The position numbers were made by a program, and so were the translations under genes. The notes under the pieces are model-generated. The model saw only the letters and a program-made list of their open reading frames with translations, did no database searches and was not told the DNA's origin. Shown here in pieces: positions 35,373-63,920 of a stretch of 64,000 nt of DNA (positions are counted from its first letter, which is position 1; the number at the start of each line of letters is the position of its first letter). The DNA is from Eledone cirrhosa (Eukaryota), in the NCBI GenBank assembly GCA_964016885.1, contig OZ024743.1, positions 247,876,001-247,940,000 of the forward strand, in the 5' to 3' direction.

Positions 35373-35626
35373 ATATTAATAAATGGAAACTATATTTTTT
35401 ATAAAACCATATTTATTTTATTATATATCTTTCAAGGGCGACCAAGGTAAATTATGGTGCGCTTTCATCAGATAAAATACAGATTTGTTTTATAAATAAA
35501 TATTGACATACCCTGAAAAAAGACAACCTCAACGGTTGAAATTTGCTGGATAGTTTGTTGAGTGCTTTATATCAGTTATAAAAATGTTTAAGCTTGTTGA
35601 ATCCCAACAAATTAAATATAACCTCT
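35373..35626 (-). mobile_element. Family B HHR element: body on minus strand fused to plus-oriented tail (about 35553-35626)
   Basis: Homologous to 38365-38620 and 63515-63676; TA-flanked. Confidence 0.75.
35414..35479 (-). ncRNA. Type I hammerhead ribozyme motif (family B)
   Basis: Reverse complement reads TATTTTAT-CTGATGA-AAGCGCACCA..TGGTCGCCCTT-GAAA-GATATA-TA-ATAAAATA. Confidence 0.78.
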
Positions 35627-35898
35627 GTATATATATATATATATATATATATATACATGCACATGCACATATCAATATGTGCGAACCATTGGGAAATAGT
35701 TCAGAAGCAGAAATAACTAAATAAATAAGATCAAAATAATTCAAAAAATATATAAGAAAATCAAAATCAAAATAAAGTCAAAAAGGGACGTGTTGACAAC
35801 GAAGGGTGTGTGTGAGTGTGGGGGGGGGGGGGGGGGGGGATAAGTACAAACAACTTAAAAATAAACAAATACATACGATATGCATATATAGTATATAT

Positions 35899-36218
35899 AT
35901 ATTATTCAAAATATTAAGAAATGAAGGATATTCACATAATCAAAATATATGGTTTATTATATATATTTCAAAGGTACTGTGCTGTTTTTTCATATATCAA
36001 ATCATATATTTTATCTGATGAAGACGTACTGAAAAAACAGCACAGTACCTTTGAAATATATATAATAAAGCATATATTTTGATTATGTGAATATCCTTCA
36101 TTTGTTAATATTTTGAATAATATTAAAAACTCCAGGACAACTTTTTCTTGTAGAGTGCTTTTAATCTATTGTAAAATTGTATTCATTGAGTAATCAACGA
36201 ACCATAGTAATCTTTGGT
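35899..36218 (+). mobile_element. Fold-back family B HHR element; inverted arms 35899-35992 / 36030-36123
   Basis: ~94-bp arms with few mismatches; the HHR core lies in the loop; followed by an ACTC..GAGTGCTT tail and (TA)n. Confidence 0.85.
36007..36070 (+). ncRNA. Type I hammerhead ribozyme motif (family B)
   Basis: TATTTTAT-CTGATGA-AGACGTACTG..CAGTACCTTT-GAAA-TATATA-TA-ATAAAG. Confidence 0.82.
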
Positions 36219-36440
36219 TATATATATATATATATATATATATATATATACACACATACACACACACACATATGTATATATATATAAAAATAAATATATA
36301 CATATATATATGCATATATATATATATATATATATACACATACACACATACAAACACACACATATGTATATATATAAAAATAAATATATACATATATATA
36401 TGCATATATATATATATATATATATATATTATATATATAT

Positions 36441-36558
36441 ATAGGAACAAGTAAGACCCCGGGGTCTTACTTGTTCCTATTACCCACTCTACTACCCTAA
36501 GTATTGAGTACTTTGGTGCGTTATGGTCCACCTGGTTCCTTACCACATTTCCTTCGTT
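36441..36558. mobile_element. TA-embedded short element beginning with a perfect 40-bp palindrome
   Basis: ATAGGAACAAGTAAGACCCC|GGGGTCTTACTTGTTCCTAT; the last 47 bp are identical to 63698-63744. Confidence 0.75.
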
Positions 36559-37153
36559 ATATATATATATATATATATATATATATATATATATATATAT
36601 ATATATATATATACATATACATCCACATCCACATACATACGCATACAAAAACATACAATTAATTAGGTAGATAAAAATCATAGGTACATAACCCACCTAC
36701 ATACGTACACACGCGCGCACACACGCACGCAATAAAAAAATCAACACACGCATACATATATACATATATACGTAATTCATACACACATATATATATATAC
36801 ACACATATATATACATAATTCATACACACATATATATATATACACACATATATATACATATATATATATATATATATATATATACACACACACATATGTA
36901 CACACACACACATATATATATACACATACATAACACATACACACACATGCATGCATACATACACGTGCGTGTGTGTGTGTGTATAAACATATAGGCAGAC
37001 AAACTATAAATACACACACGCTCGCAGGTGGGAGCATAAAAGGGGGGTACCAAAAAAATGAAAAGGTATACTCACAGATCCATGCTCAAAAAAGTTTTTT
37101 TTATAAAAATAATATAAATACACATACATACAAAAATATATATATACATATAT

Positions 37154-37500
37154 ATATTAATTCAAAATATTAACAAAAATAGACATTCGTGTGATCAAGT
37201 ATATTTTATTATACATATTTCAGCGGTACTGAGCTATCTTCAACAGATAAAATAAGATGATGCATGACATACCCTAACTAAGTAGATAGTTAAAATTCAG
37301 TCATGCATCAACTTATTTTATCTGATGAGGACGTACTGTTGAAGATAGCTCAGTACCTCTGAAATATGTATAATAAAATATACTTGATCACACGAATGTC
37401 TATTTTTGTTAATATTTTGAATTAATATTAATAACTCCGGAAAACCATTAACTGTGGAGTGCTTCTAATCTATTGTAAAACTTTATTCTTTGATTTATTC
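37154..37500 (+). mobile_element. Fold-back family B HHR element; inverted arms 37154-37268 / 37300-37428
   Basis: Arms are near-identical except for a 14-nt deletion in the left arm; same ACTC..GAGTGCTT tail. Confidence 0.85.
37314..37380 (+). ncRNA. Type I hammerhead ribozyme motif (family B)
   Basis: TATTTTAT-CTGATGA-GGACGTACTG..CAGTACCTCT-GAAA-TATGTA-TA-ATAAAATA; 8-bp stem I, 10-bp stem II with one C-C mismatch. Confidence 0.85.
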
Positions 37501-60500: not shown

Positions 60501-62388
60501 ATATATATATATATATATGTATATATATATATATATATATATATGTATATGTATATGTATTATATATATATGTATATATATATATATGTATATATATATA
60601 TATATGTATATATATATATATATGTATATATATATATATGTATATATATATATATGTATATATATATATATGTATATATATATATATATGTATATATATA
60701 TATATATGTATATATATATATATATGTATATATATATATATATGTATATATATATATATGTATATATATATATATGTATATATATATATATATGTATATA
60801 TATATATATGTATATATATATATATATGTATATATATATATATGTATATATATATATATGTATAAATATGTATATATATGTACATATATATATATGTATA
60901 TATATATATATATATATATGTATATATATATATATGTATATATATATATATATATGTATATATATATATATATGTATAAATATGTATATATATATATATA
61001 TATATATATATGTATATGTGTATATGTATATGTATATATATGTATATGTGTATATGTATATATATGTATATGTATATATATATATGTATATGTATATATA
61101 TGTATATATATATATGTATATGTATATATATGTATATGTAATATATATATGTATATGTATATATATATATGTATATATATATATATGTATATATGTATAT
61201 ATATATATATGTATATGTATATATATGTATATGTATATATATATATATGTATATATATGTATATGTATATATATATATATGTATATGTATATATATATAT
61301 ATATATATATATGTATATGTATATGTATATATATATGTATATATATATGTATATATATATATATATATATATATGTATATGTATATGTGTATATGTATAT
61401 GTATATATATATATATGTATATGTGTATATATATGTATATGTATATATATATATATATGTATATGTATATATATATATATGTATATGTGTATATGTATAT
61501 GTATATGTGTATATATATATATGTATATATATATATGTATATGTTTATATGTATATGTGTATATGTATATATATATATATATATATGTATATGTGTATAT
61601 GTATATGTGTATATGTATATATATATATATGTATATGTGTATATATATGTATATGTATATGTATATATATATATGTATATGTATATATATATATGTATAT
61701 GTATATGTGTATATATATGTATATGTATATATATATGTGTATATGTATATATATATATGTGTATATGTATATATATATATATATATGTATATATATATAT
61801 ATGTGTATATGTATATATATATATATATGTGTATATGTATATATATATATGTATATATATATATATGTATATGTATATATATATGTATATGTATATATAT
61901 ATATGTATATATATATATATGTATATATAGATATATGTATATGTATATATATATGTATATGTATATGTATATATATATGTATATGTATATATATATATGT
62001 ATATGTATATATATATATGTATATGTATATATATATATATGTATATGTATATATATATATATGTATATGTATATATATATATATGTATATGTATATATAT
62101 ATATATGTATGTGTATATATATATATGTATATGTATATATGTATATGTATATATATATATATGTATATGTATATATATATATATGTATATATGTATATGT
62201 ATATATATATATGTATATGTATATATATATATATGTATATATGTATATATGTATATATGTATATATGTATATATATATATATGTATATATATATATATGT
62301 ATATGTATATATATATATATGTATATGTATATATATATGTATATGTATATATATATGTATATATGTATATATATATATATATATATAC
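60501..62388. repeat. Compound (TA)n/(TATATG)n microsatellite
   Basis: Seen directly. Confidence 0.98.
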
Positions 62389-63092
62389 CTAAAGATCATA
62401 GTGAGAGAGACACAGGCAGACAGACGACAAAGAGGCACACACAGAGAGGCATACGCACATACAGAAGCACACGCATATACACACGCGCGCACACATATAT
62501 GTATGTGTATTGGGGAATATACTTTAGAATACATCTTGCCCTACATTCGTGCCTCAATGGAAAATAAAGAAATAACTAGTTTATATTCTCTAAGTATAAT
62601 GAAGAAATAATAAAACACGCAATAGTTTATTTCATTTTATTATCATTGTGATTACTTAAAAGAATTATCACTTATACAGACATATCAACTTTCTTATATG
62701 AATAGGCCACAGTTTATTGGAATTTACAGTCAATTTTCATTCATACACATACTGTAATTGGGCTTTGTATTAAAATGATTTCATGAAAATTATACGAAAT
62801 GTTGGCTGTCCAGTAGAAAAGAATAAACGATTCGTGAGCATCTTTCATATCAGTGACATATTTTAAAGATATTTCCTTTATTTATACCGGAGAGATATAC
62901 AGATATATAATTAAATATTGTTCGCATAAAGTCAATTAAAACACACACACACACACACACATTTTTATTGGTGCTCCGAAATAGCGATATACATATGAAT
63001 GTACACGCATCCCGTATATTATGAAATATACAATACACACACACACACACACACACACACACACACACACACACACACACACACACACACAC

Positions 63093-63260
63093 ATTTGGGG
63101 ATGGTCATGTTGCATACATTGCCAATAAAATCACACGCACAATTCGATTTTCACTTTATTAGTTATTAGCTAGTTAGTCAAAGTTCTTTAATCACACATT
63201 CTGTGACCTCCTCAATGACTATTTGTTTTCCTTTATGTCTCCTCTTCTTTCTGCTCTTAT
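63093..63260 (-). mobile_element. Diverged family A element with a dead HHR (63175-63221)
   Basis: GGTCATGTTGC..CCAATAA..CACACGCAC; reverse complement TAGTCA-TTGAGGA-G-GTCACA gaatg TGTGAT-TAAA-GAACTT-TGACTA; follows (CA)n. Confidence 0.75.
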
Positions 63261-63450
63261 TTTGTTTACTCCAGCTTATTTTCAGTTGTATCGATACTAA
63301 TAATATGTAGGTGCAACCAGATCGAAATCATCGTATATCGATTTAAATCCTTACTATATGCATAGGGTGAAAGAAGAAATTGTTTGCTTTAAACTTTTAA
63401 TCTGTGTTGATTATAAATATTTTCTCTACGGCTTTATATATATATATATA

Positions 63451-63676
63451 AGCAAAAGGGATATTTAATTTGTTGGTAATATATATATTTATAACTGATT
63501 CGAAGCACTCGACAGAAAAACTTAAACCCTTAAGATCTCCTTCCTGGATATGTCAATATTTATAAAACAAACTTTGTATTTTATCCGATGAGAGCGCACC
63601 AAAGTTTTGGTACCCTTGAAATATATATAATAGAATAAATATGGTTTTATAAATATAGTTTCCATTTATTAATATC
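63451..63676 (+). mobile_element. Family B element: inverted tail (about 63451-63516) fused to plus-strand body
   Basis: 63451-63516 is the reverse complement of about 38545-38620; body matches 38382-38523. Confidence 0.8.
63577..63637 (+). ncRNA. Hammerhead motif (family B) with core variant CCGATGA
   Basis: TATTTTAT-CCGATGA-GAGCGCACCAAA gt TTTGGTACCCTT-GAAA-TATATA-TA-ATAGAATA. Confidence 0.7.
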
Positions 63677-63854
63677 ATATATATATATATATATATATTT
63701 GGTGCGTTATGGTCCACCTGGTTCCTTACCACATTTCCTTCGTTATATATATATATATATATATATATATATATATACTGCCAAATCAACCTCACAAATG
63801 CAAGGTGATTGAAAGGTATGTCGTATCTATTTATTTATAAGACTGTTTATATTG

Positions 63855-63920
63855 TATTTTGTCTGAAGATGGCATAACATATTGTTAATATGATATCCCT
63901 GAAATATATATAACGAAATA
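63855..63920 (+). ncRNA. Hammerhead motif (family B)
   Basis: TATTTTGT-CTGAAGA-TGGCATAACATATT gtt AATATGATATCCCT-GAAA-TATATA-TA-ACGAAATA; compensatory G-C pair in stem I. Confidence 0.78.

Follow-up and report, generated by a model that had tools for sequence, protein, structure and literature searches.

A cytosine held unpaired beside the core of predicted hammerhead ribozymes in Hydra-clade Penelope-like retroelements of Eledone cirrhosa

The stretch of Eledone cirrhosa DNA analysed here (the window: 64,000 nucleotides, positions 247,876,001 to 247,940,000 of contig OZ024743.1, assembly GCA_964016885.1) carries six motifs that are predicted to be type I hammerhead ribozymes at the 3' ends of Hydra-clade Penelope-like retroelements (Table 1). 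An earlier reading of the same letters (the original prediction) described six hammerheads with a C opposite C (or T) at the fourth pair of stem II, and they are present as described: direct sequence reading verified the position and the first four pairs of every motif. In each, stem I is followed by CUGANGA and stem II, after which come GAAA, six inserted bases, UA and the other side of stem I, with the core cytosine C3 at 35471 (minus strand), 36015, 37322, 53299, 63585 and 63863. Stem II consists of three pairs, a C opposite C (C.C in 5/6; C.U in the 53299 copy) and then another helix of at least four pairs. The type I order with the core CUGANGA, GAAA and UH is exact in five of the six copies, and the sixth, at 63577, has CCGAUGA; this core, a pair-6 mismatch in the same copy and a T.T at pair 1 of the 63855 copy look like private mutations. 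The six motifs are copies of one repeat family, here family B, and are therefore not independent of one another. The 63577 copy is young, its 40 best genomic matches being 98-100% identical.

Table 1. Family B hammerheads and associated features in the window (positions of the 64,000-nucleotide stretch)
Feature	Positions	Strand	C10.4	Base 11.4	Predicted cut after	Details
Type I hammerhead, family B (AAGC/CCTT)	35414..35479	-	35461	C, 35437	35422	Core 35471-35465, stem II 35464-35434
Inverted, truncated arm of 36007 insertion	35899..35992	-				98% complementary to 36030-36123
Type I hammerhead, family B (AGAC/CTTT)	36007..36072	+	36025	C, 36049	36064	Core 36015-36021
Inverted arm of 37314 insertion	37149..37256	-				Without part of core and stem II 5' side
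Type I hammerhead, family B (GGAC/CTCT)	37314..37380	+	37332	C, 37357	37372	Core 37322-37328
Seventh family B copy, absent from the original prediction	38442..38485	+				Covariance model match; internal deletion removes stem II 3' side and stem III
Type I hammerhead, family B, TGCGCA subfamily (AAAC/TTTT)	53291..53361	+	53309	U, 53338	53353	
Predicted distal stem I extension past internal loop	63556..63656	+				63556-63568 is exact reverse complement of 63644-63656
Type I hammerhead, family B, young GAGC/CCTT subfamily	63577..63637	+	63595	C, 63614	63629	
Element tail after 63577 hammerhead	63638..63678	+				Ends at (TA)n run, insertion target
Type I hammerhead, family B (TGGC/CCCT; subfamily's usual state AGGC)	63855..63920	+	63873	C, 63897	63912	

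A covariance model of the kind that the original prediction had proposed was built from 29 genomic family B copies, the six window copies among them, and recovers these six at 66.7-80.1 bits. It also detects three damaged arms (37200-37256 minus, 38442-38485 plus and 35948-36006 minus), and an unrelated motif of another family (A) at 34880 scores 20.9 bits. Monomer folding of the six motifs is weak (z -2.4 to +0.3). No hammerhead appears among the best 150 of 611 Rfam matches in the window, nor for 63560-63660 at E up to 10, which weakens membership of an Rfam family only.

The host element, which the original prediction had missed, can be traced from longer genomic copies. The window copies are short, 5'-truncated 3' ends embedded in (TA)n and frequently accompanied by an inverted arm, and no matching reverse transcriptase-endonuclease protein was found in the window. 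Elsewhere in the genome, longer copies have a 3' untranslated region (UTR) of 1.0-1.9 kb that leads back to a same-strand frame encoding a reverse transcriptase with a C-terminal GIY-YIG-type endonuclease. Since several independent copies share UTRs with such coding relatives (L034, L270, L271, L272, L274, L146, L266 and L267), the link between hammerhead and protein is no chance nesting. The protein of one family B copy (L270) contains CNCRNKSNC (a CxCX5C linker), CDLC (CxxC) and CRH (CxH), and P0001 has the same motifs; no CCHH motif was seen by eye in the proteins inspected. DKT and RWR are present in a longer family H protein, and the family B frames inspected end before that region; of 86 proteins of at least 650 residues, 85 have DK[TS] and 74 RW[KR]. 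Pfam returned no significant family for the three proteins scanned. The CxCX5C, CxxC and CxH motifs, together with DKT in family H, are marks of the Hydra clade as given in PMC8557442; published Hydra proteins were compared by eye, and the protein tree was built with metagenome relatives instead. Insertion in (TA)n, inverted 5'-truncated arms and a one-ended tail are all present. A non-LTR retrozyme, made of head-to-tail units of about 200-400 bases, was considered and rejected, as the ends are single or inverted and their UTRs lead to coding frames.

In tens of thousands of copies one cytosine beside the catalytic core, C10.4, is kept from pairing with a strictness otherwise seen for bases of the core. 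A pattern that ignores pair 4 and fixes stem I, stem III and a purine-pyrimidine combination at pairs 1-3 has 42,364 matches in the 3.0 Gb genome, compared with 0 for the reversed pattern, the two arms of one insertion being counted separately. Among these, the pair is closed by a G at 11.4 in 187 matches and by a G at 10.4 in 217, and the control, the core change C3G, which abolishes cleavage of a Penelope-like hammerhead (PMC11167929), has 170. Frequent Watson-Crick pairing at this position, named by the original prediction as the observation that would speak against it, is thus not what the genome holds: paired copies amount to about 1%, and among the matches listed they are scattered over all subfamilies, a few being register shifts. 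As a closed pair 4 is about as rare as the lethal C3G, no paired lineage has spread, and the closed-pair copies are at the level of mutations arising after insertion.

The neighbouring pairs behave differently. In the 29-copy alignment pair 4 is unpaired in 29/29 copies, and pairs 2, 3, 5 and 6 show 10, 11, 10 and 8 double-sided changes, respectively. Over all helices 90.9% of cells are paired, with 47 double-sided changes, a value reached in 0/500 shuffles, stem II being strong. The suggestion that selection acts on RNA structure, here during transposition, is supported. Given such compensatory change next to it, a position free to vary within a helix under selection should sooner or later have become paired. 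The stem I covariation that had also been put forward was overstated, as double-sided change is limited to 1/8 pairs and to a single copy, that at 63855, and the remaining changes are one-sided (U-A/U.G or A-U/G.U). The palindromic stem III, by contrast, holds on better evidence than had been offered: the self-complementary 8-mers are confirmed, and their central bases change together (T/A in 10, T/G in 10 and C/G in 3 of 23 representatives). Pairing of these bases is possible only from one molecule to another, in agreement with the dimer model already published (PMC4209133), and the predicted dimer duplexes of the family B forms range from -2.2 to -10.5 kcal/mol. The U at 11.1, presented as a departure from the usual G10.1-C11.1, is indeed the commonest state, but it is neither universal nor odd for the Hydra clade. 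C11.1 stands opposite G10.1 in 3/23 family B representatives and 25/41 family C copies; pair 1 in 100 family B copies is A-U in 59, G.U in 32 and G-C in 3, with no extra base after A9, and it is other than G-C in 30/43 hammerheads from metagenome relatives. A U10.1.U11.1 combination has been reported before (PMC3088659). The interpretation as a whole is partly supported: selection on RNA and the absence of a published description in the literature found have stood, and the proposed tertiary contact or reverse-transcriptase site would be a candidate role only. That 10.4 and 11.4 are unequally constrained, and that the loop recurs in unrelated families, had been missed.

This asymmetry is apparent on a tree of 23 family B representatives. 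Position 10.4 shows 0 changes and 11.4 shows 3, to A and U, so that 10.4 is C, while at 11.4 C, U and A occur and G does not; each of the other stem II columns changed 1-4 times (mean 2.5 over 15 columns). A G follows C10.4 in 15/23 representatives. Genome-wide, C10.4 has decayed to T in 1,509 copies scattered over subfamilies, and no U10.4 subfamily of family B was seen among the first 100 of these. An A at 11.4 has 2,258 matches, mostly from one C.A subfamily, and a C.U subfamily also exists. In the C.A subfamily a single transition would give U-A; such copies make up 4 of the first 100 T10.4 matches, with no excess above the subfamily's share.

It might be argued that the open pair is an inherited accident without function, kept through the common descent of all copies. 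Zero changes at 10.4, against a mean of 2.5, are only weakly unusual within family B alone (Poisson ~0.08, near chance), and paired copies should be few in any case, since every single change that arises after insertion is equally rare unless a master element carried it; rarity alone is no proof of selection. A single origin is also plausible, because the proteins of families B, C and H lie in one clade. This explanation is nevertheless already disfavoured and appears quite improbable: pair 4 has stayed C.C across families B, C, D, H and K although their stems I, II and III have been replaced, none of the three changes at 11.4 in family B gave a G, and the neighbouring pairs show compensatory changes.

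The families just named were found in locus flanks and in 1 Mb of evenly spaced genome samples; a hammerhead search gave 39 matches in an 800 kb genome sample versus 2 in shuffled DNA, and more than 15 hammerhead families occur among the loci examined. At least four families besides B, all with unrelated stems, share the C.C at pair 4. Family C has 9,783 matches, of which 64 have G at 10.4, and 38/41 parsed copies are C.C. Family H, in which stem II reaches about 100-120 bases, has 7,502 matches and C.C in 34/35 parsed copies, and C.C is also found in families D (3/4) and K (4/4). In family E/F (1,324 matches) all 13 parsed copies have U.U or U.C at pair 4; an A at 10.4 occurs in 6 of the first 100 matches of this family. 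The four family patterns alone account for 60,973 exact genomic matches. Other families are paired at this position, namely A (17/17), J (8/8), G (4/4) and a group with short stem III (31/33). The possibility that mismatches at pair 1 and pair 4 are mutual alternatives was rejected, as families F and H carry both. Two further hammerheads with a U3-A8 core variant were noted. One (L302:1808 minus, C3 position) has a 107-base stem II with C.C at pair 4, C2.3-G1.3 and ends like those of family H; the other (L259 minus) has four pairs and then C.C at pair 5, and lies about 2370 bases downstream of a 715-residue open frame ending at 3031.

Families B, C and H are tied to proteins that are 41-48% identical, and subfamilies whose flanking stem II pairs differ have proteins that are 66-91% identical; for families D, E/F and K no link to a coding frame was found. 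In a protein tree with 41 metagenome relatives, the Hydra proteins of this genome form their own clade, in which H branches before B and C, and the loop-free lineage G and L031 fall among B, C and H; the alignments were anchored on one query, and deep branches are weakly supported. One origin of the loop with later losses would be the simplest reading of this tree. Outside the genome, 78 metagenome loci with a related protein yielded 43 credible hammerheads in 39 loci. The pair-4 mismatch is absent from them, with pair 4 formed in 40/40 scorable cases; the other three (L361:2471, L379:205 and L380:75) have a stem II of three pairs closed by a UUCG loop.

Stem II as a whole is not what is being held constant. 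Its total stability varies widely, from 0 to -13.7 kcal/mol across representatives, and closing pair 4 hardly alters the predicted pairing of pairs 1-3 in 17/23, so that bulk stability is not the conserved property. The latter result also bears on the possibility that the mismatch is a brake that weakens stem II next to the core, leaving most transcripts uncut and able to serve as templates. Pairs 1-3 are often A-U or G.U, and in 6/23 representatives they are predicted to be open at least half the time and to close once pair 4 forms. Many loop-free families carry a pair-1 mismatch, and uncut RNA was the main substrate in PMC11167929. A brake would, however, tolerate any mismatch at any nearby pair, and the place is fixed here; U.C also breaks the pair and arises readily, as the 1,509 T10.4 copies attest, yet it did not spread in family B. 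With a small predicted effect on pairs 1-3 in most representatives, a brake is an unlikely explanation.

Insertion junctions were inspected for traces of cleavage at the predicted site. In 1.06 Mb of unselected DNA, one family B arm starts at the predicted cut (L191:8326, plus strand). A genome pattern for shortened tails gave 523 overlapping matches, from which 22 distinct loci were parsed into 8 deletions and 14 junctions. The junction starts, found with a pattern that favours short retained stretches, are spread 1-13 bases upstream of the anchor, with none at the cut (8) and one at 9, and in about 40 junction-type cases seen by eye among the first 100 matches the starts are likewise spread. 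Under the same bias of the pattern no junction peak was seen at the cut site, which would agree with a brake. Inverted arms are common and junctions often lie near the hammerhead, which also recalls a constraint on DNA or on the opposite strand, for instance one that keeps perfect hairpins in check while the element is reverse transcribed or inverted arms are made. Such a constraint leaves the fixed distance from the core and the preference for C unexplained, and related elements carry long perfect stems; it therefore seems very improbable.

The facts to be accounted for have been shown: the motif and the element that hosts it, a loop at a fixed place, a constrained C10.4, and a position 11.4 from which G is excluded. 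The tentatively preferred explanation, to which we would give somewhat less than even chances, is that the unpaired C10.4 is a docking contact that packs stem II on stem I and lets the predicted ribozyme reach its active fold. On this model the one-by-one internal loop that follows the first three pairs of stem II would dock on stem I, two hammerheads would pair through the 8-base self-complementary stem III, and selection would act on the RNA of active master elements. The loop may be placed where loop 2 starts in canonical type I hammerheads, whose helix II has 4 pairs with loop contacts to helix I (PMC4209133); in the present elements stem II runs on for 20 to more than 100 bases beyond it, with no terminal loop at that height. 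A contact fits better than a brake because of the C at 10.4, the lack of G at 11.4 and the fixed distance from the core, and C10.4 likely marks a folding contact not described so far. In favour of an RNA contact, the pairs on either side of the loop are free to vary. The family B stem I extension past the internal loop, predicted also in the folding of a sister copy, is a helix of differing sequence among subfamilies and could serve as loop 1.

A weak candidate partner for C10.4 would be the U2.3-purine1.3 pair of stem I, as U2.3 occurs in 5/5 multi-copy C.C families and 5/13 paired families (Fisher p = 0.036, a post hoc, uncorrected value from loci already seen). Several observations weigh against docking, in addition to the only weakly unusual count within family B given above. 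U2.3 occurs in 21/43 outgroup hammerheads anyway, and a single-copy C.C variant has C2.3-G1.3. Neither the folding of 21 representatives nor a register comparison of 19 revealed an invariant RNA partner for C10.4. Relatives evidently do without the loop, as pairs 2-6 are all formed in 19/43 outgroup hammerheads, and one of them (L368) combines an 8-pair stem I like that of family B with a fully paired stem II. The loop of family E/F is U.U or U.C rather than C.C, and the family E copies L308 and L315, near 1510, have a pyrimidine mismatch at pair 3 with A-U at pair 4. Nor was a peak of insertion junctions seen at the cut site with the biased pattern described above. Four other structural accounts were tried. 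A register shift with C10.4 bulged is possible for AGGC/CCTT only and was rejected as a general solution; an alternative fold in which a core G becomes the partner of C10.4 was predicted in 1/21 representatives and rejected; a hinge needed by any long stem II was rejected, as outgroups carry long perfect stems; and a fixed link to U1.7 holds in 13/19 representatives only.

Alternatively, C10.4 may be read by the reverse transcriptase-endonuclease of the element, and this protein would then fold or activate the hammerhead in the transposition complex alone. The identity of the base is held while no RNA partner was found, and within this genome a single protein clade has the feature. On their own, Penelope-like hammerheads are poor cutters (PMC4209133), and that of Anolis cuts only with the element's protein, cutting being dispensable for insertion in vitro (PMC11167929). 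On the other hand, the flanking pairs vary freely, even between subfamilies with the closely similar proteins mentioned above, proteins as distant as 41-48% identity share the feature, and the nested G lineage lacks it. Protein recognition is the close rival of docking, and somewhat less probable.

These elements share much with known systems and also differ from them. Hydra-clade hammerheads are already known (Craig et al. 2021, PMC8557442), and those elements share with family B a sense-strand type I hammerhead near the 3' end with a self-complementary stem III, as well as (TA)n targets, inverted 5'-truncated arms and the DKT, CxCX5C, CxxC and CxH motifs. A pair 1 other than G-C is frequent there too (U.U in most rows). 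However, none of the 26 Hydra rows of File S2 in that study (two repeats, Hydra-1_Obim included) has a pair-4 mismatch inside a longer helix; in Penelope-17_HM a loop caps a stem of 3 pairs. Most of those rows have a stem III of 9-10 bases and C15.2-G16.2, whereas in family B, with its 3' UTR of 1.0-1.9 kb, it is 8 bases with U15.2-A16.2. The minimal hammerheads of Cervera and de la Pena 2014 (PMC4209133) likewise have a long helix II, no recognised loop-loop contact, a palindromic helix III, predicted dimers, many families per genome and compensatory changes. An extra base after A9 and a G10.1-C11.1 pair belong to their consensus, and as a rule both are missing from family B. Among the 56 motifs of Fig. 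S3 of that paper, inspected by eye, a pair-4 mismatch occurs as single cases only (Clonorchis 2, Strongylocentrotus 1), for which the portion of the paper available claims no conservation.

Core, topology and a stem I that continues past an internal loop are shared with the canonical type I hammerheads of animal retrozymes (PMC7229834, PMC4209133), but their helix II of 4 pairs, with a terminal loop docking on helix I, has no counterpart in family B. A conserved U.U in helix II of the axolotl HHR_Amex2 lies at the helix base (PMC7229834), and the window copies are dispersed retroelement ends rather than tandem 300-base retrozyme units. The Anolis Poseidon element PAc (Frangieh et al. 2024, PMC11167929) also has a terminal-repeat hammerhead, no trace of cut ends in natural data and a tail extension at one insertion end. 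It belongs to a different clade, and the available sections of that report mention no stem II mismatch; PAc is nevertheless the precedent for protein-assisted cleavage.

No description of a conserved one-by-one loop at pair 4 was found in the literature searched, which did not cover Lunse et al. 2017, and the accessible part of a recent preprint (bioRxiv 10.64898/2026.07.22.740005) mentions neither a mismatch nor octopus. There is close to an even chance that these elements represent a new hammerhead structural subtype of more than 60,000 copies, in which a single loop cytosine either replaces the loop-loop contact or is the switch handle of the reverse transcriptase. Penelope-like hammerheads cut poorly alone, lack known tertiary contacts and, in the one case tested, need their protein; what is gained here is a single non-core base that is constrained to the same degree as the core. 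Natural controls are at hand in the C.C, C.U, C.A and U.U forms, in a form whose loop lies at pair 3 and in closely related elements with perfect stems. A one-base tertiary contact, if true, would be useful for ribozyme design, and a mere brake or an inherited quirk would be of modest interest.

Some minor features of the window were also observed. A family A hammerhead at 34821-34890 (minus strand) has a 9-base stem III, a C.A at pair 1 and pair 4 formed; the same C.A at pair 1 is present in every one of the 35 family H copies, and an A that faces C is a typical site for editing. Positions 14133-14230 form a near-perfect hairpin of about 45 pairs, with Rfam microRNA matches under the gathering scores. 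Another (TA)n-flanked repeat occupies 36445-36560 and 63695-63745; it includes a perfect palindrome at 36444-36481 and has a relative in L002.

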